From assembly GCA_964016885.1 (NCBI GenBank), contig OZ024745.1, forward strand, positions 47,678,001-47,742,000: a stretch of 64,000 nucleotides of DNA, read 5' to 3'. The stretch comes from Eledone cirrhosa. Lineage: Eukaryota. The notes beneath the pieces were generated by a model that searched no databases, had not been told where the DNA came from, and was given only the letters and a program-made list of their open reading frames with translations. The translations under genes were made by a program, and so were the position numbers. Shown here one piece after another: positions 5,936-28,758 of the stretch. The stretch's first letter is position 1; each line of letters begins with the position of its first letter.

Positions 5936-8900
5936 GTAGGCACCCTAAAGGGGCGCGCTAACGAGGTTGTAGAAATGCTTGAACGTAAGGAGGTCGATGT
6001 TTGTTGTATTCAAGAGACCAGGTGGAGGGGTGGGTCTGCTAGATTCATTGAGGGTAAAAAACGATGTTATAAGCTTTTCTGGGTGGGAAACGACGATGGG
6101 CTGGGTGGAGTAGGAATCATGGTAGCAGAAAAGTGGGCGGATAAGATAATAGACGTAAATAGAGTGAACGACAGAATAATTAAAATACGACTTGTCCTCA
6201 ATAGAACTACGGTGACAGTAATATCTGCGTATGCACCCCAATCCGGACTGCCCGGCACTATAAAAGACAGATTCTATGAGACACTGATGCTCACTACCTC
6301 CCAAATATCTGACAGTGACTATATAATTATTGCAGGCGACCTAAATGGTCACGTTGGGCAACATTGTGACGGCTACGACGAAATCCATGGAGGCTATGGG
6401 TTTGGTACTAGAAATGAGGAAGGCTCCAGAATCCTGGAATTCTGTGATGCAAATAACCTAACTATCTGTAACACTAACTTCAAAAAACGTGACAATCACC
6501 TGATCACCTATAGATCCGGGGAACACACAAGCCAGGTAGATTATATCCTTACCAGAAGACGTGACAGAGTGTCTGTTGTAAACACTAAATCCCTCCCCCA
6601 TGAAGAATGCACCTCCCAACATAGACTGATAATTAGCGACCTCATAGTCAGGTCGAGACGTACTCGACAGCAGAAGAGGACTATCCTCAGGAGAAAAATA
6701 TGGAAGCTAAAGGACCCCACAGCCAAAAATAAATTTCAAAACATATTACTTGATGCTTTCGACAGTAAGGAAGAACACTTAGAGTCGGACAATATAGAGG
6801 GACAGTGGGAATTTCTGAAAGCAAACCTGCTGTTGGCCACAGACGAAGTCTGTGGCTGGAGCAGGCCTGTAGGCAGGAGGAGAGTAACATGGTGGTGGAA
6901 CAGTAAGGTGGAGGAGTCAATTAAGGCCAAAAAGCAGGCTTGGAAAGTATGGCGGGATGGGGGAAGTAGAGTAGACTATCAAGTGGCCAGGAGGGAAGCT
7001 AGGAGAGAAGTGTACTTAGCAAGAAGGGAAGCTGAGGAAAGAAAGTTCAAGCATGTCCTACAACGCGATGACCAAAAACGTGAGGTGTTCAGGATTGCTA
7101 GGCAATGCGTCAAGGAAAATCGTGATATTGTCGGGGAGAAGTGTGTACTTAACGATGATGGCATACTTGCCATCACCGACACTGATAAGAAGGCAGCTTG
7201 GAAGTGTCACTATGAAAGGCTACTAAATGAGGAGAATAAATGGGAGAAAGACAGTCTCCCCCATGTCGACCCAATAGAGGGACCAGCAGTGTTAGTCGAG
7301 GGGAGTATAATAAGTAAGGCAATCAAGGATATGAAGACAGGTAAGGCGGCTGGGCCTTCGGAAATAGTTGCTGAGATGCTGAAGGCATCTGGCACGGTGG
7401 GACACACCATGGTCACCCGCATAGTTAACCAAGTCGTACAGAATGGGGTTGTTCCGAAGGACTGGCATAGCAGCATCATCGTTAACTGTTATAAGGGTAA
7501 AGGAGACGCCCTAGATAGGAGTAACTATAGAGGCATTAAATTAATCGACCAGGTCATGAAGGTCACAGAAAAAGTAATAGCGCAACTAATCAGAGAGAGA
7601 ATTGACCTAGATGAAATGCAGTTCGGGTTTGTGTCAGGCAAAAGTACCACAGACGCTCTTTTCATAGTACGACAACTACAGGAGAAGTACCTAGCTAAAG
7701 GTAAACCCCTCTACTTAGCTTTTGTCGACTTGGAGAAAGCCTTCGACAGAGTCCCCCGCTCCATTATCTGGTGGGCTCTTAGAAAACTAGGCGTTGACGA
7801 ATGGCTTGTGAGGGCTATACAAGCCATGTATAAAGAAACAGTCAGCAAGGTTAGAATTAACAACGAATATAGTGAAGAGTTTAGCGTAAAAGTTGGCGTC
7901 CATCAGGGCTCTGTTCTCAGCCCCCTACTATTTATTATTGCCCTTCAGGCAATAACAGAGGAGTTCAAGACAGGCTGCCCATGGGAACTCCTATACGCAG
8001 ACGACCTGACACTCATAGCGGAATCAATGGCCGAGCTAGAGAAGAAATTCCAAACATGGAAGCACGGCCTAGAGTCAAAAGGACTTAAAATTAACCTGGC
8101 TAAGACCAAAGTTCTAGTTTGTAGGAAAGAAAACAAGGCGGCGGTCCCTTCTGGGAAATGGTCGTGCTCGGTGTGTAGGAAAGGGGTAGGTAGAAACTCC
8201 ATTTTGTGTCCTAAATGCAAAGTATGGGTGCATAAAAGATGTAGTGGGATCACAGGTAAGCTAACTAAGAACATAGATTTTACATGTGGCCGGTGTTCTG
8301 GTGCAATAAGTAGCAGCAAGTGCCCACACAATACTAGCTCTTTCAATTGCGCAGAGGGTTCTATAGAAATAGTGGACAGCTTCCGTTACCTGGGCGATAA
8401 AATCAGCAGTGGGGGAGGGTGCTCTGAAAGTACTGTAGCTAGAGTCAGAACTGGTTGGAAAAAGTTCAGAGAGCTTATACCACTATTAGCTGCTAAAGGG
8501 TTCTCCCTAAAAATGAAAGGCAGGTTGTACGATGCCTGCATACGAACAGCAATGTTGCATGGCAGTGAGACCTGGGCATTGTGTGCAGAGGATATACGCA
8601 GACTAGAGAGGAACGAAGCTTGCATGCTCCGCTGGATGTGTAACAGTAATATACGTGAACGGCAAAGCATAAACGAACTAAGGAAAAAATTAGAGATAAG
8701 AGGGATCAGATGTTGTTTACTCGAGAGAAGGCTACGTTGGTATGGACACGTGATGCGCATGAAAGTCGATAGCTGTATAACAAAGTGCAGGGCAATAAAG
8801 ATAGACGGTAGCCACGGAATAGGCAGACCTAGAAAAACCTGGGACGAGCTGATAAACTCCGACCTCACACACTTACACCTCTCCAAGACAATGTCACTGG

Positions 8901-8962
8901 ACCGAGACCTTTGGCGGTACTCAGTAACAGAGAAGACCCGCCTTGCCAGTAGGCATCTCTAA
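5936..8962 (+). CDS. RTE endonuclease-reverse transcriptase with PHD-like zinc finger (1008 aa, no stops, own start codon missing)
   Basis: C-terminal part of ORF 4475..8962, starting [10 protein letters not shown]; CSVC..CPKC..HKRC..CGRC after the RT domain. Confidence 0.9.
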
Positions 8963-12415: not shown

Positions 12416-12453
12416 GAAATATAAGAATCAAGGAACTGTTCAAAACATTATTG

Positions 12454-12500
12454 TGCTTACAGCTGTTTCCTCCAAACCGAGGTTTGGATTCTTCGGAGCA
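12454..12500 (-). ncRNA. Minimal type I hammerhead ribozyme, variant core CCGAAGA
   Basis: Minus strand: TGCT-CCGAAGA-A-TCCAAAC(CTCG)GTTTGGA-G-GAA-ACAGCTGT-A-AGCA; stem I TGCT/AGCA, 7-bp stem II, palindromic stem III. Confidence 0.75.
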
Positions 12501-13041
12501 ATTTATTAATGCATGGACAGTTATATGACCTCCTTTTCAGCCGAGAGACATACCAACACATATTCAAACATTGATACATATTCAAACATTGTGGGTCAAC
12601 ATTCATTACAGAATTTAGAGTGGCAGTACACACTTCGAGATTACATTTATATTAATAGGTACAATCAAAAATCAAAGATATAGGTTAAAGTACAACATGA
12701 AGATAAGTGGTTATATAGTGCAAATGTTATATGTGTGGCACGCATGTGCGTCTTGTTTATATAGTGTGGCAGAGAGATATGTGTGGTAGAGGCACTTAGG
12801 TAGGTAAATAAGAGTGTTAGGTTGGTAGATCTGGTGGCAAAGTCTTTATATGATTGATATAGTCTGTGTGCAAATGGGTAAATCTCCGGGAAACAAGATC
12901 CGGTGGGGGAGAGAGAGATGTAGGTGGGTGTACGTTGAGATGCGTGATGTGTATAAGATGTGTAGAAAGAAGGGAATGGTATAAAGGATAAAATAAAAAT
13001 AACAACACAAGAGAGAGTTACCTTGGGAGAGATTTAATAGT

Positions 13042-13077
13042 CCCTATATATTTCGGATTCACATCCATCAACTGGGG
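13042..13077 (-). ncRNA. Minimal hammerhead-like fold with divergent core CAGTTGA
   Basis: Minus strand: CCC-CAGTTGA-T-GGAT(GTGA)ATCC-GAA-ATATAT-A-GGG, ~390 nt downstream of the Penelope GIY-YIG stop. Confidence 0.5.
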
Positions 13078-13307
13078 GTTTTTCCGGGGTGGGGGAAAAG
13101 GTTGTCTGTCGGACAGGTGCGAAACGCGTCCTCCGCTGTTTGTTGTTTTGAATATCTGAGGTATTCGGCAGAGCGCGTGTGCGCGTGAAATGGGGTCGGT
13201 CGGGCAGAGGTCAGCGGCCGAATGAGGGAGTGGGATGGCGCTAGCTGTCAGTCCATTCTCTGCCTGTTTGTTAAATGTTACTGTGTGTGTGTGTTGTTGT
13301 CTCGCTT

Positions 13308-13347
<40 letters not shown>

Positions 13348-14970
13348 GTTGTTGCCTTGTTCCTCTGTATTGGCAGTGTAGTATGTTCGTATGGTGGAAT
13401 GCTACTGTGTGTGTGTGTGTAGTTGTCTCGTTTGTCTGTGTTGTGTGTTAATGCATCGTTTGTTAAGTTAAACCAGCCATTTCATTTCACTTCTCTCTGA
13501 TCGGTTGTTTATTTGCAGTTGCAGGCTTTTGATAAAAAGCGCTTCCTTGATACGTAACGTGCCGACGTATCTTTCAGTCGCTAGAATTGTGACAATGGGC
13601 CTTCCGTCTTTGTTTCCGCATTTGTCTATGTGTTTCCGGAAAGACGAGGCCCTGGTTTTAGTGTGTTCCTTGATCCGGATGTGCAAAGGTCGGATTGTGC
13701 TACCTATGTAGTATTGGTTGCACCTGTCACATTCTATCTTATACACGACGTATGTGCGTAGACAACAGTTCGCATGGCGTATCGGGCAGTCTCCGAGGGA
13801 GCATGCATCAGTAGATTTCCCGGGTTTCCTGGAGAGGCATCTTCGCAGGGAGGGGCCTGAGTGGGCCAGGTGGTTGTCGAGGCCCTCCCTCCGTATAGCC
13901 TTGCGGATAGCGTTGGTGGTATTCTCACCCAGGTGTGGCATTTTAAGGAAGCACTTGCCTTGGGTGCCTCTCTCTGTCTCCTATTCTGTCTGTGATTGAG
14001 GTAGGGTACCCGTTCGTCTCCAGCACCTCGAGGAATCGCTTGGTATGAGTGACACCACTCGTGGGATCGCTGCATCTGGTTTTGATTCGCGCGATCTCGT
14101 TCGTGATGTATCCTCTTTTGGCACTGTTAGGGAGGGCGGACTTGTAGTGAACGAACAGGTCCCTGCAGGCTGCCTTTCGGTAGAAGTTGCAGTGGATCCT
14201 TCCCTGTTCCGTGATGTTGATTCGGAAGTCGAGGAGGGCAAGTGACCCGTCTTCGTTGGGGTGTTCAACACTGAAGTCAATGTTCTCGTCCGTGTTGTTG
14301 AACGTCTCGTAGATTCTGTTCGCCGTGTCTTGGGAAGATGTGAGGATGAGGATATCGTCCACGTATCTTGAGAAAAAGGCTACGGCATTGGGGTGGCAGG
14401 CGTTGAGTGCCTTGCGTTCGAGGTTGTCCATGTAAGAGATCGCTAGCACACCTGATAGGCTTGATCCCATGAGCAATCCCGAGGTTTGTTGGTATGTTTG
14501 GTCAAGGAATCCGAAGTAGGTGTTGTCGACGACGATGGATAGGAGTTGGATGTCAGTGGTGGTGAGCCCGAAGCAGTGTAGGTCATTATAAATTAAAGTC
14601 TATATTTTATTATAGGACAAATTTTCACAATGATCTATCCATTAGTAAAGACACTATAAACATATGAATTAATAAAACCGTTTTTAGATAAGTTCTGTTG
14701 AATCCTCTCTGAACCGATTGTAATAACTACTTCACCTTGTCTTATTCTTTTATTATATATATTATAGATAATACATATATAAGGCCATTTGTATCTGGTT
14801 TAGAATAGGTACATTGTATCCCTGAGTGTTGTAAAAAATGGTGTCTGGCTGTAAAATATTCCTCAAAATGTGCTGTTAAACTCATGCCAGCATGGAAAAG
14901 TCTATGTAAAAATGATGATGAATGTGTGCTTGCCATTTCTATTTCTTGAGAAATTGCCATTCTCCTACAT

Positions 14971-17023
14971 GCAATTTGGGAAACTTCAGCGGTCCGACTT
15001 GCCAGGAAAGAATGTCGGAATGCTGAACGGCAATATAAACTGCATAAATCAGATGCCAACAGAAGAAAGCGGAATAAATCTAACCATCTCAAGCAAGTGA
15101 CAAAGAAGGCAGTGCTTGAATTTGAACAGTGCATAGCAACCAATCCTGACAGTAAGGTGTTCTGGAAATATATTCATTCAAAGCAGAGACCTCACTCTCC
15201 AGTTGGTCCTCTTCGCAATCCCCACACAAGCCAGATCACTGACGATCCCAAAGAATGCGCAGAACTCATTGCTGAGTGCTATTGAAGTATTTTTACTGTT
15301 GAAAACCAGAATGTACCATCTCCACCATCTCTAACATCAAATTCCATAACAACTATGGAATTTACACCTGCAATGTTGCGACGTCACCTTAAGAATAAGC
15401 GCAACTATGCCTCCCCTGGTCTTGATGGTGTGACATACCTGCTTCTCAAACGTGGCGGGTATTTCCTTTTGCACCAGCTTTCTTTCTTCTTTCAATACTG
15501 TCTCAACAATGGTGCTACTCCGGAGCAGTGGAAAACTGCCAGTGTCATTCCCCTGTTCAAAAAGGGCAACCGCATGTCACCTGTCAACCAGTCAGTCTTA
15601 CTAGCTGTATGGCCAAACTGATGGAATCCTGTGTCAGAGAAACACTTTGGAACTTCTGGAGCTCTCACAGCCTCATCCGGCCCTCACAGTTTGGATTTAT
15701 CCCTAACTCCAGCTGCTGTGATCAGCTTATCGAGTTCCTTGAAGACATCACCCGGATCACTGACAGCGGCTCATGGGTGGATGTTGTTTACCTTGACTTT
15801 GCTAAGGCTTTTAATTCTGTGCCACACAAAAAGACTTATGGCAAAACTCTCTGCAATAGGTGTGAGGGATGATCTTTTCGACTGGTTGAAATCCTTCATT
15901 CTCAGCTGAAAAGAAGTAGTCACGGTTCTAGGACAGCATTCTTCACCATATGAGATGTCATCTGGTGTACCACAGGGATCTGTTCTTGGTCCCCTTTTGT
16001 TTGTGGCATATATTAATGACATAGATGCCAACTTACAGAATGCCACGGTACTGAAATATGCAGATGACATCAAGCTGTACCTTGAAATCAAAAGGACTAA
16101 TCCTGAAATCTACAACTCTTTCCTACAATCAGACCTGGACACAATGCAGCAATGGATCACAGACTGGCAACTGAAGCTGGCTGTGGACAAGTGTACCACC
16201 ATGCATTTCGGAAGGAAAAATCCAGCGTCCACATACTCCCTCCACAACACTGATATCATGAAGTCCTCTTGTGAACGTGACCTGGGCATTACTCTCAGCA
16301 CCGATTTGCGTTGGACAAAGTATGTCTCTAAGATTGTCAAGAAGGCCGAGGGTGTCTTGGCATCACTCAGCAAGACCTTTGTTAGCCGCTCTCCAGCTAT
16401 CTATTTAAAACTGTATACAGCTATGGTACGACCACACTTGGAATTCGCATCATCAGTCTGGAACCCCTATCTTGCTCAGAACATTGACCGCCTGGAAACT
16501 GTTCAGAGACGTGCAACCAAGCGCATACCCTCTATCAGGGATCTACCATACTCTGAATGCCTTGCTTCCCTGGGCATGGATTCATTGAAGCTCCGACATC
16601 TGGCAATGGACTTGGTAAAAACCCACAAAGTTATTAACCATCTCGCCAACAACAACCCTGAGCACCTTTTTGATCTCCTTGTGTTTAACACACGTGGACA
16701 TGCCTACAAAATCAGAAAACAGCACAGCTCTCATGACTTTCATAAACATTTTTTCACGCTCAGAGTTGCTGAAGCATGGAACAAACTGCCTGCGTCAGTT
16801 GTTAGCTGCCGAGACACTGCATCCTTTAAAACCCTCATGCTTCCCGAAATACACCAAAACTACACCTGATGTACCCCTTCCATACACATGCACACGTGTA
16901 TATCATGACTCATGCACTGTTCATTTTCCTGACGTTTGTACATTACCCTATGTACTATACATACACTTTTTGATGAGTTGTAGTGCACCTGAGCACTGTA
17001 CACAATATTTTTATTATTATTAT
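14971..17023 (+). mobile_element. CR1/L2-group LINE, 5'-truncated, frameshifted RT, (ATT)n tail
   Basis: VVYLDFAKAF, SGVPQGSVLGPLLF, KYADDIK, TRGH; 3' stem-loop GTAGTGC-ACCTGA-GCACTGT then TATTAT tail. Confidence 0.9.
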
Positions 17024-18133
17024 ATTTAGATGTATATAAGTGTGTTTGTATGATTTAGTTTACTCTAAGCATTTCACATCTTCTCAAGTGGTGTTTTATC
17101 TTCACCAACAATCTTTATCGTCCATTATGTAGCGTTGATCTGGTCTTCTTATTAAGACAAGTTTACACTCTCAGTAATGTCTTTCTAGGACATGGTTTTA
17201 TTGTTCTTTCACTCTTGTTCTTCTTAGAGACCATTATAACTCCAATATTTCATTATATTTGGTTTGTTCCATTATTATATAAAAAGCTATATAAAATATA
17301 AATGCATTACACACACACACACTGTTCAATATTTAAATGTGTGTGTGTGTTGGTTTGAATGGACAGAGGAAGGAATACTCAATACCATAGTAGTGTAGTA
17401 TTCCATTGAAGCTGATACAGTAAATTTGAAGTTACTCCAACAGCTGTGTGTGTGTGTGTAATACTGAACTATATGTATATTGTCACCATTTAACGCCCAT
17501 TTTTCCACACTGGTGTACGTTAGACGAGTTATCCCATTGTAAGACAAGTCAGATCAGATAATTGAGTCTTTACTCATGCAGAACTGTTTCTGGCTTCATT
17601 TCTACGGCTGGATGCCCTTCCTAACACATCTGAGTATAATATAAACTATATAAATAGATTACGATTGTGATCCTGTCCATGTAGATTAGGAACATGAGAG
17701 GTGACCAAACCACACAAACCAAACCACCATTATGGAGCAACGCGGGTGCATTTTTGTAGCACCGTCACTTGAGGTTATTGGCCATAGACCAATTGTAGAG
17801 CCATTTCTGCTTTGGGGAGGGAGATAGGTATGGTTGCAGGTGTATGTGGTGATTTGGCAGGACAATGAATAAGGGGTAGTGTGGCTGATTAGTGCATGGG
17901 GAGAGGAGAGTAGTGTTGTGAAGGATGTTGTCAATAGGTTGAGGATAAGGGGTAGGGGTAGCTGATTAATGAATGGAGAAGGCATGTATAAACCTATATG
18001 CACATTCAGCTATGTTTTATATGTCTAATATTAATGTAGTTTATTTTATATATGTATATAATGTATAATATGTGTATGTAAATATGCTTATGTAAAATAT
18101 TTGACATGCATATATACATATATATATATATAT

Positions 18134-18465
18134 GAAGGCGCATGGCTTAGTGGTTAGAGCATTGGCCTTGCAATTGAAAGGTTGTGAGTTCAATTCTCAG
18201 ACCGGGTGTTGTGTTGTTTCCTTGAGCAAGACACTTTATTTCACATTTCTCCAGTTTACTCAGCTGTAGAAATGAGATGATAGGACTGGGGTCCATATCA
18301 TTCCACTGCAAAGTGGTCGTGGAGGTGCCACAGCAAAAAAAAGCATGTAGCACTCACTGTAAATGAGGTTGGTGTTAGGAAGGGCATCCAGCTGTAGAAA
18401 TCAAGCCAGAATCAGTTCCCGTCCCACACTTGCAAGCAGGGAAAAGCGGACGTAAAATGATGATG

Positions 18466-18467
<2 letters not shown>
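18134..18467 (+). mobile_element. tRNA-derived SINE family A with RTE-like 3' end
   Basis: A box TGGCTTAGTGG, B box GAGTTCAATTC, 3' GGTGTTAGGAAGGGCATCCAGCTGTAGAAA...(GAT)n shared with the RTE. Confidence 0.85.
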
Positions 18468-18505
<38 letters not shown>

Positions 18506-18546
18506 TACAAATCAACGGTTTAAGCAAAGAATTTCTGCTTTCACCC

Positions 18547-18601
18547 AAAGTTTCAGATGATCCCACTTAGGGTGAAAGCAGAAATTCTTTGCTTAAATTT
18601 T
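18547..18601 (+). ncRNA. Type I hammerhead ribozyme fold, variant core CAGATGA
   Basis: AAAGTTT-CAGATGA-T-CCC(ACTTA)GGG-T-GAA-AGCAGA(AATTC)TTTGCT-T-AAATTTT; 7-bp stem I with one G-U. Confidence 0.65.
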
Positions 18602-18651
18602 AAATCTGTATTAATAATAAACATTTGCTCTACAGGTTTATATACACTTAT

Positions 18652-18928
18652 ATCATCATCATCACATCATCATTTTTAACGTCCGCTTTTCCCTGCTTGC
18701 AAGGGTGGGACGGGAACTGATTCTGGCTTGATTTCTACAGCTGGGTGCTTTTTTTGCTGTGGCACCTCCACGACCACTTTGCAGTGGAATGATACGGACC
18801 CCAGTCCCTATCATCTAATTTCTACAGCTGAGTAAACTGGAGCAATGTGAAATAAAGTGTCTTGCTCATGGAAACAACACATCACCCGGTCTGAGAATTG
18901 AACTCACAACCTTTCGATTGCAAGGCCA
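18652..18928 (-). mobile_element. SINE family A, 5'-truncated, internally deleted
   Basis: Reverse complement of most of 18163-18467. Confidence 0.85.
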
Positions 18929-18939
18929 TATATATATAC

Positions 18940-19275
18940 ACACCCCCGTCCCACTACCCCCACCCGATCCACACCACCCCCTTAAATGTGAAGTTATGTT
19001 GGTACCACAACATCCAGTCCGAAACAAATGAGGTCGTGTAGGTGTCACGACAAAAAAAACACAGTCCACGCTGTAATGTGGCCATGTAGGTAACACGGTA
19101 AAAACCTCCCAGTCCACACTGTAAACGTGGTTGGTGTTAGGAAGGGCATCCAGCCGTAGAAAACTCGCCAGACAGTCCTATACAAGCAGGGCAACAAATC
19201 TTGCCTCAAGTGGGAAAACTCCCGTCCAAACCCATGCAAGCGTGGAAGATGGACATTAAACGATGATGATGATGA
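18940..19275 (+). mobile_element. RTE 3'UTR fragment with (GAT)n tail
   Basis: Matches 8968-9320. Confidence 0.9.
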
Positions 19276-19782
19276 TATACATATATACCAACATAACTTT
19301 ATAGGGAAAGGATGGAGTAGGGGTAGTGGTTTGGGGTGTATGTTCGGTTTGGATGTGTGTATATTATATTATATGTATATATGTGTGTATATTATATGTA
19401 TATATGTGTGTATATTATATATATTATATGTGTGTATATTATATTATATATATAATGTTCCTTTTACACTCAAGTGTTCACACACATATGAACCATGAAT
19501 AATATTTGCTGATGTTGTACAACGTTGAACCTATCAATATAATGATTTTTGAAAGCACCCTGCAGACAAAGGTTTTGATTGTACTAGCTTCACCTGTGGA
19601 CTAGAGCCCTGTCCTTTCTGTCATTTGTGGCAGATGACTCATTGATTTTCCATCAGCTATTGTAATAGTATTTCTGAAAGTGACTTAAGCAAAGTTAATA
19701 GTATTTACTTAATGCTTGTTTAACTTGGTTTTTCTATCTTAAAAACTAAGGTAAATATATTATGTTGTTTAAAAAAAACAGA

Positions 19783-19970
19783 TTAACTCTTTAACCACCA
19801 ACTCACCCAAAACCTTTGTTTGAAATCTCATTATTACATACCAGATATTAGATGTCAGTAGTTAGATATTTGTCTTTTGTTATTGAGTGGAAAGTTAGTT
19901 ATTTCACTGAACCTAATTAAAACATAATGGCAGTATATTCTTGTTAGAAATATGGTCTCAAAAGGATTAA
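19783..19970. mobile_element. Degenerate TTAA-bounded MITE, family 2 (relatives near 27416, 32935, 47148, 60770)
   Basis: TTAACTCTTT...CCACCCAAAAC...TTAGAAATATGG...AAAGGATTAA pattern recurs in the window. Confidence 0.45.
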
Positions 19971-20407
19971 TAGCTACAAATAATTCCTGTAAATTCAATT
20001 ACTGTTGTCATTGTTGTTGCAGTTATTTAGCTTGCTTAACCATAATCTGATAAACCAATGATCACAGGCAGCCCAGTTGTGACTATCATGTCTTTTTATG
20101 GATATCTAAGACTATATTATCTAATGCTTTCTTTTATTTAAGTCAACAGGGTTGGGTTTTATGACTGTCAGATAGCCTCATCAATAGAAAGACCTATGCA
20201 AATCTAGTTTCCTAAAATTGGATTTTTGCTTAGTAAGATTTAGCTATTATTTCTAGCAGGATAAGAACCCATATCGTCTCCCTTCTTTCTTTTTTAATTT
20301 TGGGGGTTGAAATTATGAAATATATTCATTGTTTGAAACCTCATTTGAAACAAAATTTTCATGCTTTTTCATTTAAGATTATTAGATGAATTGCATTGAA
20401 AAAACAG

Positions 20408-20468
20408 ATGAACTCCAAAATGATGAGTAAAATTAGAAATGTCTTTGATAATAGGGCACCAGCAGAAA
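20408..20468 (+). CDS. Candidate first coding exon of the DEPDC7-like gene (MNSKMMSKIRNVFDNRAPAE)
   Basis: Preceded by acceptor tttttcatttaag (ends 20378); ends phase 1 at A|gtttgt, compatible with exon 35208. Weak donor, no homology support. Confidence 0.3.
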
Positions 20469-20939
20469 GTTTGTGTCCTTTAACTAGTTTTCATAACTAG
20501 GACATTTAACTGTAAAGGTTTAATTCCACCTATATATGAACAATTACATTAAACAACTACAGTACATCATTGAAAGTAACATAAGTACTATATAATCGGC
20601 ATGCGTTTTAACTTTTAGTGCTGAACTCAAATCTTAACTACACATGTATGTACAGCTTAATAAGTCTTTGTTGTAAAGTCAATAAACTTAATCACTCGCT
20701 GCTAGATTTATCTGATTAGGAAATGTTTATAAAATTACACTTTTAATATTGTGGACTGAGTGCTCTACTATTGTGAATATAACCCACCAATGTTCTGTCA
20801 CTAAGGCACCCGTTTTACGTGTGTTGTGTTGATGCAAATAACTGTGTATACTCTGGGAATGTATCTTACATTGCCCATGGAGTATGCTGAGATACAACCG
20901 GTACTGGCATTGATAAATATGCTGTGTCCGTCAACTCCT

Positions 20940-20976
<37 letters not shown>

Positions 20977-21189
20977 GTATTTAAACTACAAGTAATGGCT
21001 ATCTTTCTGAGAAAGAGAACTGAATACAGAGAGTAATGTTTTTATTGAGAGTATTTAAAAGTACAGTTTCTCAATGACTGACCAATTTCATCTCAGTGGG
21101 GAATAATAAACATATAAATATGCTACACAACTTATCTTTGTCTAACTTCATAAACATATATACAGGGTGTATTAAAATGAATGTAATAA

Positions 21190-21380
21190 TAATAATTGTT
21201 TCTACTTTTGGCACAAGGCCAACAATTACCCAGTACATTACTGGTACTTTATTTTATCGACCCTGTAAGGATGAAAGGCAAAGTTAACCTAGGCGGGATT
21301 TGAACTCCGAATGGAAAGGGCCGTAACTCTATGCGCCAAAGCATGGCGTCCGACCCTCTACCGATACTGCCAATCCACCA
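21190..21380 (-). mobile_element. tRNA-derived SINE family B (octopus-type)
   Basis: Matches the reverse complement of 54669-54860. Confidence 0.85.
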
Positions 21381-23056
21381 TGTATTAATAATAATAATAA
21401 TAATAATGGAAATTGTGTACAGTGCTCAGGTGTACTACATATATATATATAAACAGTTCTATATGAGCAAGACATGGTCACTTGACCCAACTTGCCTCTA
21501 ATGGGACAACCTGTCTATCCCATGCTAGCGTGGGAAATGGACGTTAAACAATGATATATATATATATATAATTACATTGACACAAAGCTCCGAATCTGTA
21601 AGGCATGGCTATAGTCAGGGGCCTCATTTGCCTTAAAAATGTGAGGGTGACAAACCAACATTTGTTGATTCTTAAAGGAGCATAAATTGCTTATGCTGCC
21701 TTTCCCGGGCCCTATCACATAAGTAAAATTTTACACTAATTAAATTTTATATATTCAAATGAAGTTCAGATATAAAAAAATAAGCTTAAAAAGAATTTAT
21801 ATCAAATGAACAAAAAATAAAACAGACGTTTTACCCCCCTGAAATAAGGCCCTTGGCTATAGTTAATTGATTTTGAAAGGATATAAAACAGAGCTGATCC
21901 TCTGGTGGGATTTGAACTCCAAAATATACAAGGTTGAAATTTAATATTGCACTCTGCCACTTGAATGCATGGTATAAATATTGACTGTTATTGGTAAACT
22001 GTAAAATAATTGTTTCTACTTTAGGCACAAGGCCAGCAATTACCCAGTGCATTACTGGTACTTTATTTTATCGACCCCATAAGGATGAAAAAGTCTCCCT
22101 TAATGAATATGAAGTCTATCATGAGGCATGGAAGACTAACCTCTGCTTTAGGAGTGGAAACCGACCTTAAAATGCTTGATGTTGCTTTTATTGCTGCTGC
22201 TGTTATAAAATACTTTACAAAAAAAAATCTTCATGTATTTATTTTACTGAGAATACAAATATTGGCTAGCTGTTTACTCAGCCATGTGTAGTGAAGTTAT
22301 TTTTGGAGACATTGTGAAATGAAATCAGAAATTTCTGTCCTTTAGTTCTAAGATGGTGTTAAACCTGTTTTGAAAATGATGGACATGATAAATATAGGAA
22401 ATCGTTTTTTTTTTACAATTTTACTCATTCCCAAAGATAGTTTCCTGTAGATTTACTTTGTTCAGGATTTAAAAATAAATGATGTAATGTCTATACATTA
22501 GTTCAAGTCACACTTCATGCTGATTAGATTAAAGGAGGATATTAAAGGTCAAAGTATGTAACACTGCTATTCCATTTAACTTATATCTTTGTTGCATAAG
22601 CTGTGAACTAAATTATTTTATTGGGGATTGAACTGTTATTGTGTCATTTAAAGGACAGATCATTTTGACTAACCAATGTATTTATTGAAATTATGAAAGA
22701 AACTATACCATTTCAAGACAAAAAGATCAAGAGTTTTTATTCAAAGTTGATGTTATATGCTGTCTTTAGTGAAAGGTGGTGAGGGTGGAAAAGATTTTGA
22801 GATACTATCAGTGACATGGAGATAAAATCATGTCGGAGGAGTTTACATGAGATTTATTAAAATGTCAGCTATCATTATCATCATAGGTGATGACAAAGAT
22901 ATTTAAAATTTTATATAACATTTTTATTGGTTGTAATTATTGTTGATATCATTGAACAATAAGAATAACATTTCTAACTTTCCATTTCACCCTTTTGTTA
23001 CTTTTAAAATACAATGTATTTCAATTCATTTTGAAGATGAGGAATTTGGAGAAATT

Positions 23057-25955
23057 TAATAATAATGATAATAATGAAATTATTGTGTAAAGTGCTCAGG
23101 TGCACTACAACTCGTCAAAGGTGCATGTATAGTACATAGAATAATATACAAATGTCAGTGAATAGTGTACGAGTCATGATATACATGTGTGTATGTGTAT
23201 GGAGGGGGAATATAAGGTGTAGTGTTGGAGAATCTCAGGAAGCATGGAAGTTTTAAAGGATGCAGTGTCTCGACAGCTAACAACTGATGCAGGTAGTTTG
23301 TTTCATGGTTCAGCAACTCTGAGCATGAAAAGATGTTTCCGAAAGTCATGGGAACTGTGCTGTTTTCTGACTTTGTGGGCATGCCCACGTGTTAGACATG
23401 TGGAAATCAAAAAGGTACTCAGGGTTGTTGTTGGCAAGAGGGTTAATGATTTTGTGGGTGTTTACCAAGTCAGTTGCCAGATGTCAGAGCTTCAATGTAT
23501 CCATGCCCAGGGAAGCAAGGCATTCAGAGTATGGTAGATGCCTGATGGAGGGTATTCACTTGGTTGCACATCTCTGAACAGTTTCCAGGCGGTCAATGTT
23601 CTGAGCAAGATAGGGGTTGCAGACTGGTGATGCAAATTCTAAGTGTAGCCGCACCATAGCTATGTACAGCTTTAAATAGATAGCTGGAGAGCGGCTGACA
23701 AAGGTCTTGCTGAGTGATGCTAAGACACCCGCGGCCTTCTTAACAATTTTAGAGACGTGCTTCGTCCAACGCAAATCGCTGCTGAGAGTAATGCCCAGGT
23801 CACGTTCACAAGAAGTCTTCTTGATATTAGTGTTGTGGAGGGAGTATGTGGACGCTGGGTTTTTACTCCCAAAATGCATGGTGGTGTACTTGTCCACAGC
23901 TAGCTTGAGTTTCCAGTCTGTGATCCATTGTTGCATTGTGTCCAGGTCAGACTGCAAGCAAGATCTATAGTGTTCAGGATCTGTCCTTTTTATCTCAAGA
24001 TACAGCTTGATGTCATCTGCATATTTCAGTACTGTGGCATTCTTTAAGTTGGCATCTATGTCATCAATATATGCCACAAACAAAAGAGGGCCAAGAACAG
24101 ATCCCTGTGGTACACCAGATGACATCTCATACGGTGAGGAATGCTGTCCTAGAACCGTGACTACCTCTCTTCGACTGAGAATGAAGGACTTCAACCAGTT
24201 AAAAAGATCATCCTTCACACCCATTGCAGAGAGTTTTGCCATAAGTCTTTTGTGTGGCACAGAACTGAAAGCTTTAGCAAAGTCAAGGTAAACAACATCC
24301 ACCCATGAACCGCCATCAGTGATCCGGGTGATGTCTTCAAGAAACTCGATAAGTTGATCACAGCAGCTGGGGTTAGGGATAAATCCAAATTGCGAGGGCT
24401 GGGTAAGATTGTGAGAGTTCCAGAAATTCCAAAGTTTTTCTCTGACACAGGATTCCATCAGTTTGGCAATGCAGCTAGTAAGACTGACTGAATGATAGAC
24501 TGAATGATGTGCGGTCACCATTTTTGAACAGAGGAATGACACTGGCAGTTTTCCACTGTTCTGGAGTAACACCGTTTTTCAGACAGAATTGGAAGAAGCA
24601 TGATAGCTGGTGCTGAAGGAAGTACCCACCACGTTTGAGAAGCAGGTATGTAACACCATCAAGACCAGGAGAGGCATGGATGCATTTATTTTTAAGGTGA
24701 CATCGTAGCATTGCAGGTGTAAATTCCATAGTTGTAATAGAATCCGGTGTCATAGGTGGTGGAGACGGTACACTCTGGTCTTCAATAGTGAAAATGCATG
24801 CATAGCATTCAGCAATGAGCTCTGCGCATTCCTTGGGGTCATCAGTAACCTGGCTTGTGTGGGGATTGCGAAGAGGACCAACTGGAGAGTGAGGCCTCTG
24901 CTTTGAGTGAACATACTTCCAGAACACCTTACTGTCAGGGCTGGTTGCTATGCGCTGCTCAAATTGAAGCACTGCCTTTTTTGTCACCTGTTTGAGATGG
25001 TTGGATGATTTATTTCGCCTCTTCCTATTGATATCTGATTTATGCAGTTTGTACTCGCACGTTCAGCATTGCAACATTCTTTTCTGGCAAGACGGACTGC
25101 TGCAGTCTCCCAAATTGCACTTTTGAGATGTTTTTTCTGCTTATGTGGCACCGATGCTGCACATGCTGTCCATATTGAGCTCAGGATGTTCTGGAGTACA
25201 GTGTTGACATCTCCAGAGTTGTAGAACTCAAGCCAGTTTGGACGTAACTCGGTGCAGTAACAGTTCGTCTGCTTTATTCCAGTCAAAGTGAGCAGTTTGG
25301 AGATGGTTGTGGTTCTTGTTACTGCCCATGAGGGATAGATTGGCAATGATCATAGCATGATCAGAATCACCTAAAGGTTCCTCAGCAGTAACACTAATAA
25401 CTATTTCATGAGTAGTGGTGAAGAGTAGGTCCAAAGTGTTGTCACCTCTTATTGGGGAAGTGACCACTTGGGACCAATTCGAGTCCAGGACTAGCTCAAG
25501 GAAGTCATTTGCACTTGGCGGCCAACGAAAGGTTTCCCAGTCAATCTCAGGGTGATTGAAGTCCCCTGCAATAAAAACATAAGTGGCTGTTTTCCCGGCA
25601 GCAACTCTGAGGATATCACAAAGTTGAGTGTCCTGATGGTAATTTGGGGGACGGTAAATGACTCCAAGTAGCAGTGTTGACATGATCATACATATATCGC
25701 AGAAAAATACTTCCTGCTGCGATTGGTTCAAATCAACACAAGGAATTGCCAACAAATTTGATCGAATGTAGACCATTACACCACCACCACAATGATTAAT
25801 GCGCTCTTTATGAAACAAGTTGTAGCCAGTTATGCTGAAAACCCCATCACAGAGTAAGGAATGTGCCCAAGTTTCCATGACTGTAATGAAGTCAGGGTTG
25901 ATACTTTTGATGTAGGAGTCAAAAAGATGAATCTTATTGCATAGACTACGTGCAG
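23057..25955 (-). mobile_element. CR1/L2-group LINE, endonuclease + RT, decayed; same family as 14971-17023
   Basis: ARSLCNK..VMETW, GVIYRPP, AGDFNHPEIDW, LDLLF, SDHAM; RT YLDFAKAF and YADD; same 3' stem-loop and ATT tail. Confidence 0.92.
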
Positions 25956-26497
25956 TAATATAATTTAGTAATATAATATTCTTGTTGAGCTAGTATTTGG
26001 AACACAACTTAAAGATTCTTACATAAAATTAATAGATTTTTAGATAAATACACTTTAAAAGCCAACTTTGTATTGTAGTACCATTTTCGCTTCCATAAGT
26101 ATACATAAGTATACATAAGTATACAAAAATAAGTCAAAATAAAGCTTTCTTACAGTGAGGGAGGAGTAATAGTTATCTACTAAAAGAATATTTAACTTTA
26201 TTCAAAATGAACTTGAAAGATATATGAAGATATTTGAACTATAATTTAGCTGTAGGTTTTCAATCTTACACATTGGTATGAATTTTTTAACAATGTGTTC
26301 TAAAGCTAGGTTTTTCTAGTGTAAACTTGTATATGAAAAGTATATCTTCATTGCAGTAAAATACCTTCTTTCATGACAACCATTGTGATACAAAACCAGC
26401 TGAAGTCTTAGTTCTGTGATACAAAACTGTTTTAAAATGTTTACATTTTATCTAAAAACCTTTTAAGTTCTGCTGAAAACACCAGATAAAGTTAGTT

Positions 26498-27197
26498 ATG
26501 GCATATACTCGAATATAAGCTGTCTCCTAATTTATGTCTAAGAAATGGGCAAAAATCTAACTCCATGAGTGGAAAATATATTTAAAACATTTTAAATATC
26601 AAAATATCAAAACTTTATAAGTGTCATTTAGAGTATAGTTTTTGTTCCACAACTCCAATGCATAATGATTTTTTACTATTTCATCCATTTTATAAATTTT
26701 CAACAAGTTTCAAAAGTTTCTCAAATTTGTGTTTACTTCCGGCCACTTACATACTGGGAGTAGTTAAAAACAAGAGATCAGATAAGAGGACATTGAATAT
26801 GGATTCATAGAACAGAAGAGGGCAGCAGTGACATAGTGAGAGAAAGGAGTCAGTGAGAAAAAGAGAGGGCAAAACTGAGAGAAGAGAGAGATAGCAACAT
26901 AATACAAGTAAGATTGAAAGTAAAAATATAATTCAGAGGAAAACTGTGCATGCGTGTATGATTGTATAGGGGATATTTATGTATCAAAATATTCAAATAA
27001 ACAATGTAGTAAATATAGAAAAACAGTTCCGTTGTAAAATAATCATTCCAGACATTTTGGCACCTTATTTATGTAGAATTTAAAAATGGTTAAAATTGTC
27101 AAAATATTGACCCTAAATATAGCCAAACCTCCATTTTAGCAATGATTTTTTTTTTTTTGTCACTATTTCTCGGCTTATATATTAGTATATATGGTAT
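26498..27197. mobile_element. Degenerate Tc1/pogo-like MITE
   Basis: Imperfect terminal inverted repeats CATATACTCGAATATAAGC and GCTTATATATTAGTATATATGGTA. Confidence 0.45.
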
Positions 27198-28166
27198 ATT
27201 ACTAATTCCCATTATTTTCAAAATGATTTGGAAATTACTGACAGTATCTATTATCTATTATTAGAAATATTGTAATGAAAGTATTAAGACAGTAGCATTC
27301 ATGACAAAAGTCACTTAAATGTGTTAACCTTTTTGATACCAAAATGCTTGAAATTGCTTCTTCTTCCACAATGTGAAACTGTCTATTTTAAAATGTCTTT
27401 CATATAATTCTGTCTTAACCCTTTTGATACCAACCTGGCCAAAATTGACTCTAGTTTTATAAAACAAAACCAGCCATTCTAAAAGGGTTTTTATTTAAAT
27501 TAAAATCTTCCAACATATTTTTCTATGAGAATCAAATGTTAAGTTACTATCTTAGTAATGAAATAACAGTTTTAGTAATTAATTGAATTGTTTCATTAAT
27601 TAATTGAAATAGTGAATTTCACTAGAAATTTAATCATTTAAGCAACTGGAATATTGATTGTTTATCTGTTTGTAACTTGGTTCATGAAACCTGTATCTAT
27701 CAGGAAGTATTTACATATGGGTTGGCTGATCCACTACATTGTTGTCCAGCCCAGTGTGAGCTGTATGTTTTACTGATGTAGGTCATTTTGTACAGGGTGA
27801 AGGTGGCTTATGTGTGTGTTGTCAATCAAGAAGTAAATATGTGTATACACATTGAGTAAATTACTGTAATATAAATGAAGGGCTTCTAAAGAGGAATAAC
27901 ATGTTCAAGGTGAGTCACTTAATGTCATGTGGAGTATGTGTAAGCTGACACTAAAGAACATGTGCTTGAATAGAATCAAGTATTTCTCTTCAAACTGCTG
28001 TCCAGGGATTGATCAAGTAGCTGTTAGTTTGAATTAGTTAATCTATCCATGTTTCTGTTGGATATGAAATGATATCTAAATGTTCAAGAGTTTTAATTTA
28101 AAAGAATTGGATTACAATTGGCATCAGTGTGATATATCTCACAATGATGCCAAACATAATCCAGTC

Positions 28167-28207
<41 letters not shown>

Positions 28208-28209
<2 letters not shown>

Positions 28210-28758
28210 CGGCGATAAATTAGTTTTGCGAGGTTTTTGATATGAAATCGTGTGTCGAAACAAATATTGTTATACTTGGGGAGGGTCATATTTGTGTAAT
28301 AATATTGCCAGAATTAATAACAGAACACACTCACTGTTTGGTTGGTTTTCGCTTCTGTGTCTTTTATATCAGTTAATTTAATTTATTCGGTCCTCAATGT
28401 TGCCATTGACTGACCAACGGTCAAAAATACAGATACAATATAGACACAAACACATATATATAGTCTATCAAAGTTCTTTCGTTGCACATCTGCAACATCG
28501 TCAGTGGTGCTATTATGTTTCCTCTCGTTGCATTGTATGCTTACGCCATCTTTATTTAGTTATTTATTTATTTATTTATTTGTTTTTGTTTTTTTGTCTT
28601 CTCTGCGTTTGCGTGTGTGTAGTGTTTTGTTTGATGTGTGTTCTTGTTTGGGTGACTGTGTATTGGTTAATGTATTCTATCTATTCAGTGAGTGTGTTCT
28701 GTTATTAATTCTGGCAATATTATTACACAAATATGACCCTCCCCAAGTATAACAATAT
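28208..28758 (-). mobile_element. Non-coding Penelope-type module between (TA)n tracts, with a perfect 73-bp inverted repeat and an internal hammerhead
   Basis: 28264-28336 is the exact reverse complement of 28686-28758. Confidence 0.65.
28462..28512 (-). ncRNA. Minimal type I hammerhead ribozyme, canonical core CTGACGA
   Basis: Minus strand: AGCACCA-CTGACGA-T-GTTGCA(GATG)TGCAAC-GAA-AGAACT-T-TGATAG; near-palindromic stem III, imperfect stem I. Confidence 0.75.

Follow-up and report, generated by a model that had tools for sequence, protein, structure and literature searches.

Altered hammerhead cores as the consensus of Penelope-like element families in Eledone cirrhosa

Hammerhead motifs of the window and their host elements

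The window analyzed here, a stretch of 64,000 nucleotides of Eledone cirrhosa (assembly GCA_964016885.1, contig OZ024745.1, positions 47,678,001 to 47,742,000 of the forward strand), contains four hammerhead motifs, A to D, which had been pointed out in a preliminary description of the sequence. All four were present at the places given there, and each was found to sit in the pseudo-long terminal repeat (pLTR) of a different Penelope-like element (PLE) family with a C-terminal GIY-YIG nuclease. The CUGA U-turn of the catalytic core (U4, A6) is altered at the family level in A, B and C and is kept in D. Coordinates, cores and predicted cleavage sites are given in Table 1.

Motif A (UGCU/CCGAAGA/A/UCCAAAC-CUCG-GUUUGGA/G/GAA/ACAGCUGU/A/AGCA) has a 7-bp stem II, an A.G mismatch at 10.1-11.1 and a palindromic stem III, ACAGCUGU. 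Motif B (CCC/CAGUUGA/U/GGAU-GUGA-AUCC/GAA/AUAUAU/A/GGG) has a U9.1 bulge, a 4-bp stem II and the stem III AUAUAU. Motif C (AAAGUUU/CAGAUGA/U/CCC-ACUUA-GGG/U/GAA/AGCAGAAAUUCUUUGCU/U/AAAUUUU) has a U.U mismatch, a 3-bp stem II, a long hairpin as stem III and a 7-bp stem I, and motif D (CUGACGA/U/GUUGCA-GAUG-UGCAAC/GAA/AGAACU/U) has a U9.1 bulge, a 6-bp stem II and a weak stem I. The positions G5, G8, A9, G12, A13 and A14, the C3-G8 and A15.1-U16.1 pairs and H17 (any base except G) are held by all four motifs.

The common architecture claimed for the four motifs in the preliminary description was confirmed in part. Type I topology was recovered by descriptor for A, B and C, and D has just 2 contiguous stem I pairs before a mismatch. 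The extra base said to follow every core forms part of a mismatched 10.1-11.1 pair in A and C and is a bulge at 9.1 only in B and D. Stem III, described as short or palindromic throughout, is neither in C, and for motif B the alteration at position 4 was read correctly but a second change, A6U, was overlooked. Of the traits of minimal PLE hammerheads, namely a 9.1 base followed by G10.1-C11.1 and a palindromic stem III, motif B has both. Motif D has the first, with an imperfect stem III palindrome; motif A has the palindrome but the A.G mismatch, and motif C has U.U and the long hairpin. An alternative register of motif B with UUGAUGG as the core was rejected, as stem II, which covaries, is broken in that register and stem I no longer adjoins the core.

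The family A element is 4.19 kb long, with an open reading frame (ORF) of at least 832 amino acids that was open in 7 of 7 fetched loci spanning it. The 832-amino-acid protein contains YRDD and YVG motifs and gave no significant match in Pfam and none in PDB; HTH_animal, GIY-YIG and RVT_1 occur in some of the members of its nearest Atlas clusters (at 0.96-0.98). The protein motifs and the Atlas neighbors point to family A being a PLE. The family is young, its ORFs are intact and its near-identical copies number in the thousands. The longer copies of family D run into a reverse transcriptase (RT), a Cys linker and a GIY-YIG nuclease. Family C comprises an older subfamily, C1, and a younger relative, C2; among the 40 best C2 matches, 24 link the nuclease to the motif, and in one C1 copy (L093) a PLE nuclease lies 633 nt upstream of the motif. 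Cys-rich linkers were found in A (CNCRANRTC), B (CSLRDC), C (CNCRNRVDC) and D (CTNRKCIIC).

Families A and B have direct pLTRs and many opposite-strand pairs, and the hammerhead lies in the pLTR, as in endonuclease-containing (EN+) PLEs. The hammerheads lie approximately 4.19 kb apart in family A and 3.33 kb apart in family B, and a scan of one element of each of these two families revealed no second hammerhead. No tandem array was present at the four window sites. The host elements are therefore autonomous PLEs and not retrozymes, and the label retrozyme-like, used in the preliminary description, is not supported.

Within the window, the bounds of the family A fragment were set by 98-99.8% identity to most of 29 other family A copies, and its junction at 12870 recurs as loose ends in public contigs. 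The C1 fragment holds a fold-back inverted piece at about 18520-18546. It is flanked by two copies of one SINE-like (short interspersed nuclear element) repeat in opposite orientation, at 18135-18467 and 18660-18930.

Table 1. Hammerhead motifs and PLE fragments of the window, with predicted cleavage sites
Feature	Position	Strand	Core or domain match	Predicted cut	Remarks
Hammerhead motif A	12454..12500	minus	CCGAAGA 12496-12490, C4 = 12495	between 12458 and 12457	descriptor match, as for B and C
Family A PLE, 5'-truncated 3' end	12416..12870	minus			pLTR, ~460 nt; ends at (TA)n-rich array
Hammerhead motif B	13042..13077	minus	CAGUUGA 13074-13068, A4 = 13073, U6 = 13071	between 13045 and 13044	
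Family B PLE, 5'-truncated	12871..14599	minus			RT C-terminal part, GIY-YIG nuclease, 3' pLTR
Family B RT, C-terminal part	13943-14599	minus	RVT_1, E=1.4e-8 (Pfam)		
Family B GIY-YIG nuclease	13468-13980	minus	GIY-YIG, E=1.6e-4 (Pfam)		frameshifted
Hammerhead motif C	18547..18601	plus	CAGAUGA 18554-18560, A4 = 18555	between 18594 and 18595	
Older PLE subfamily C1, short fragment	18504..18655 (ends approximate)	plus			adjoins (TA)18 at 18468-18503
Hammerhead motif D	28462..28512	minus	CUGACGA 28504-28498 (canonical)	between 28471 and 28470	
Family D PLE, 3' pLTR fragment	28209..28690 (upper end approximate)	minus			ends at (TA)19, 28171-28208

Core changes in copies, sister families and the genome

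When the 3.0-Gb genome was searched with patterns requiring exact flanks, so that the better-preserved copies were counted, family A gave 3,629 matches with C4 compared to 49 with another base (26 T, 14 A and 9 G). Family B gave 2,397 matches, the first 100 of which were all G5-U6-U7; with a slightly longer pattern, 42 matches were not A4 (24 G, 14 T and 4 C), and all of these had U6 and none was canonical. In family C, A4 was found in 63 of 65 matches, and in family D the canonical core was unchanged in all of the 30 best matches. CTGANGA is thus not the consensus in A, B or C. The variant cores of these families are the family consensus and not the decay of single copies, in agreement with the earlier suggestion of lineage-level variants. 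For family A, no change of C4 to T was listed at 1% in the DNA contigs from a single sample, which agrees with the genome counts without being independent of them. Public contigs over motif A, from runs labelled as two other organisms, had a depth of 2-5 and were too shallow to use.

The copies within one family represent a single event, and sister families were therefore compared. Older relatives of A with U7 gave 1,108 matches, and the first 100 were 86 C4, 13 T4 and 1 A4, a share of T4 that fits CpG decay. In seven A-lineage representatives the upstream flank was 32-65% identical to that of A, some of these values possibly being lowered by truncated copies, compared to 72-94% for the motif. 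In the two most distant relatives the base is U4, as it is in one copy nested among C4 copies. In 11 A-lineage representatives, picked by patterns in which the 7-nt core was free or nearly free, 92% of the stem cells pair and 4 pairs are changed on both sides, and 0 of 500 shuffles reached the observed covariation score. C3, G5, A6, G8, A9 and U16.1 were invariant in these 11 representatives.

A sister family of B, designated B' (CCGUUGA), gave 1,484 matches; among the 100 listed, C4 was present in 100 and U6 in 98. B' and B are 61-66% identical in protein, 48-50% in the flanks and 74-76% in the motif, and stem II shows two compensatory A-U to G-C changes between them. Subfamily C2 keeps A4. 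These comparisons of sequence show that altered U-turns are inherited family-wide and across sister families, with the stems staying paired. The persistence of altered cores in diverged sister families with covarying stems also bears out the view, put forward at the outset, that the variants go beyond random decay.

In a nuclease tree of 13 rows, from which duplicates, window chimeras and weak matches had been dropped, A and C share a clade with a canonical-core family, B and B' stand apart, and D falls among canonical families. The A-C branching has a support of 88% only. From this arrangement it follows that U4 was lost at least twice and likely three times, separate origins in A and C being likely.

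A relaxed type I descriptor found 5 core positions in the window compared to a mean of 1.2 and a maximum of 4 in 30 block shuffles. These were motifs A, B and C and two doubtful matches, 13166+ (the antisense hairpin of B) and 36026+, which were taken as chance. Motif D escaped the descriptor, as no more than 2 stem I pairs precede the mismatch. In a genome sample of 80 evenly spaced 10-kb stretches (800 kb in total), there were 62 matches compared to 4 on the reversed sequence, and of the 62, 48 were U4, 12 were A4 and 2 were likely spurious. Variants at position 4 are a minority among the hammerheads of the sampled genome; the alteration of three motifs in four is correct for the window and overstates the genome. 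Extrapolation from the sample would give approximately 200,000 motifs from more than a dozen families genome-wide. In many of the 62, G10.1-C11.1 is replaced by a mismatch.

In 1.4 Mb, the variant families that recurred had their family-level changes at positions 4 and 6 and at the 3-8 pair. Two other small groups recurring there, TGGAAGA and CTGAGAC, had 3-4 loci each and low scores. The published U3-A8 core (UUGAAAA) was found in a separate family, with 17 matches in 9 loci (for example L035 1938, L165 3186 and L235 3038). A single PLE copy at about 5536 on the plus strand of locus L205, with a hammerhead-like CUUGAGA downstream of an A-like nuclease, may represent a further variant family. 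No hammerhead was found by Rfam scan among the 150 of 316 window matches listed, a scan that also missed the canonical motif D and is thus insensitive, nor among the 36 matches in 5 family loci.

The association with (TA)n noted in the preliminary description holds. The distance to a TA tract is 39 nt for motif A, 44 nt for motif C and about 254 nt for motif D; it is 627 nt for motif B because the family A fragment interrupts the 3' end of B. Moreover, (TA)5 occurred within about 290 nt downstream in 46 of 50 A, 16 of 30 B, 23 of 31 C and 22 of 30 D copies, an enrichment over the 25% of random genome positions that lie within 300 nt of (TA)5. Insertion at (TA)n through targeting by the PLE nuclease is established for such PLEs (PMC8557442). 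The association of families A to D would likewise come from the targeting of the element nuclease and not from the ribozyme. Elsewhere in the window, between two multi-kilobase (TA)-rich arrays, an uninterrupted long interspersed nuclear element (LINE) ORF with apurinic/apyrimidinic (AP) endonuclease and RT motifs was found at 5940-8962, which we take to be RTE-like.

Possible slow cleavage, protein assistance or a structural role

The inherited changes U4C in A, U4A in C and U4A with A6U in B likely reflect selection for a fold that still cleaves, in a slow or protein-dependent manner. Regarding the motifs themselves, we hold with slightly better than even confidence that cleavage of A, B and C is slow or protein-assisted. 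In the proposed mechanism, the PLE transcript would bear one hammerhead motif per pLTR. Two motifs of A or of B would pair through the palindromic stem III, while the stem III hairpin of C would be long enough for the motif to act alone. G8 and G12, the counterparts of guanosines that PMC9901934, in its own numbering, names as catalytic, are kept and would still serve as acid and base, and the lost U-turn contacts would lower the cleavage rate. Binding of the RT-nuclease protein may then compensate for the weak core, as for the anole element PAc (PMC11167929), whose hammerhead cleaves only with its own protein. A natural U4C change retains viroid infectivity (PMC3088659). The lowest-energy fold of the family A dimer was a double hammerhead joined by an 8-bp palindrome.

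Several observations weigh against this interpretation. In a full double-mutant scan, all mutants of the CUGA turn had low activity except for a C3-G8 swap (PMC9901934); the RNAs of A, B and C are therefore predicted to be slow alone, and the double change of B may be inactive. The B dimer gave stems I and II and a weak stem III from its A-U palindrome, and the minimum-energy folds of C, D and B' were not hammerheads; only the dimer fold of A was. PAc transposes in vitro without hammerhead cleavage (PMC11167929), and Naiad PLEs amplify without canonical hammerheads (PMC8557442). No insertion 5' ends were found at the predicted cut of A among the DNA-contig rows listed. In addition, GAAA served as the anchor of the descriptors, and G5, G8 and A9 were set in most of the patterns, so that conservation there is a biased measure, and the shuffle controls for covariation take no account of relatedness.

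Some of the same evidence favors a reading in which the hammerhead fold is maintained for a function other than catalysis, for instance palindrome-mediated RNA dimerization or a site for binding or folding of the RT-nuclease, cleavage having been lost or become dispensable. We consider this somewhat unlikely overall and most plausible for the B lineage. The near inactivity in vitro of CUGA-turn mutants (PMC9901934), the cleavage-independent insertion of PAc in vitro together with the lack of RNA-seq ends at its cut site (PMC11167929), and the lack of insertion ends at the cut site of A among the rows listed all agree with it, as does position 4 being A in B and C in B'. A structural role, however, has no obvious need for the C3-G8 pair or for a base other than G at position 17, and the invariant core positions of the 11 A-lineage representatives argue against it as well. 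Neutral hitchhiking, in which a founder with a damaged ribozyme was amplified by chance and the motif is no longer selected, would be consistent with copy counts in one young family not being independent events, with the amplification of Naiad PLEs (PMC8557442) and with C4-G5 being a CpG, in which C and T readily interconvert. It is improbable and largely refuted already by conservation in sister families: the variant outlasts the divergence of the A subfamily flanks and approximately 35% divergence of the B and B' proteins, and the motif has kept its identity across the A lineage, with compensatory stem changes.

For family C, A4 could also be driven by an overlapping splice signal, C3-A4-G5 completing a word that resembles a pyrimidine-tract/CAG 3' splice site. 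C does read UUUCAG after a pyrimidine tract in the pLTR, and in D. virilis Penelope the 5' edge of helix I coincides with the end of an intron (PMC4209133). We regard this as very improbable: it gives no account of the CCG at the same place in A and B', and no spliced copy or RNA was seen. At the edge of helix I, 6 nt upstream, there is an earlier AG, and such an AG would normally be the one chosen as 3' splice site.

Two further features lie close to the motifs. In B and B' (window about 13024-13018, minus strand; L239 and L247), a splice-donor-like word, GGTAAC, occurs approximately 20 nt 3' of the predicted cut and is followed by a pyrimidine-rich stretch, a possible pLTR intron. Among C1 copies (L081-L110), 17-18 of the 28 scored lose the family upstream sequence within approximately 10 nt 5' of the core, mostly through fold-back inversions (18520-18553 in the window), which was not seen for A or D. 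This suggests that the 5' edge of stem I is a place where C1 cDNA often terminates or undergoes template switching.

An extension of the interpretation as slow or protein-dependent cleavage, which we consider unlikely, is that at least three PLE lineages independently lost the CUGA U-turn and that B and B' (CNGUUGA, approximately 3,900 copies) would be active without U4 and A6, the protein supplying the role of the U-turn. If true, B and B' would be a natural RNA-protein hammerhead missed by canonical descriptors, perhaps present also in PLEs reported as ribozyme-free. The role of the PLE hammerhead is a question for the field, as cleavage is slow, is assisted by protein in one element and can be dispensed with in vitro. 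In this genome, families that have been successful bear core changes that cripple model hammerheads, alongside canonical sister families, and the variant and canonical families offer ready natural pairs for asking whether cleavage matters to transposition. Should the variants cleave, ribozyme searches assume too narrow a hammerhead consensus and PLEs called ribozyme-free merit re-examination; should they not, a non-catalytic role of the fold is conserved.

Relation to known hammerheads

Minimal hammerheads of PLEs are known, and the inherited U4 and A6 core changes across PLE families appear new. No report of U4A, U4C, A6U or a U4 change with A6U as a PLE family consensus was found in the literature searched, and earlier descriptions could exist. 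The motifs resemble the minimal type I hammerheads of PLEs (Cervera & De la Pena 2014, PMC4209133) in pLTR location, type I topology and short stem I, and in occurring as thousands of dispersed truncated copies. The extra 9.1 base of those hammerheads is shared by B and D, and the palindromic stem III with predicted dimer pairing by A and B; the U3-A8 variant described there is also present in this genome, as the separate family mentioned above. In contrast, G10.1-C11.1 gives way to a mismatch in A and C. U4, G5 and A6 are present in 44 of the 44 rows examined, out of 56, in Fig. S3 of PMC4209133, compared to C or A at position 4 and U at position 6 here, and the descriptor of that study fixed U4, G5 and A6. 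In the parts of PMC8557442 considered, which describe (TA)n targeting and relaxed descriptors, no such altered cores appear.

PAc (Poseidon, Anolis; Frangieh et al. 2024, PMC11167929) likewise has its hammerhead in a PLE pLTR, and cleavage that occurs only with protein could tolerate a weak core, though no core variant is described in the portions of that study used here. PAc belongs to the Penelope/Poseidon clade, whereas A, C and D carry Neptune-type Cys-rich linkers. Natural core variants have been described (Perreault et al. 2011, PMC3088659), namely U4C in a viroid, A6C in a phage, and U3-A8. The viroid U4C is less active in vitro and sufficient in vivo, and the A6 change gives low detectable activity. 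As far as the sections of that paper used here extend, these are rare single cases, none of them fixed across transposon lineages, and U4A, A6U or a U4/A6 double change are not among them. Non-LTR retrozymes (PMC7229834; bioRxiv 10.64898/2026.07.22.740005), as portrayed in the parts of those works drawn upon, also comprise type I hammerheads of animals that are related to the pLTRs of PLEs; they are non-coding tandem repeats with a hammerhead in every unit, whereas motifs A to D are found in protein-coding PLEs.

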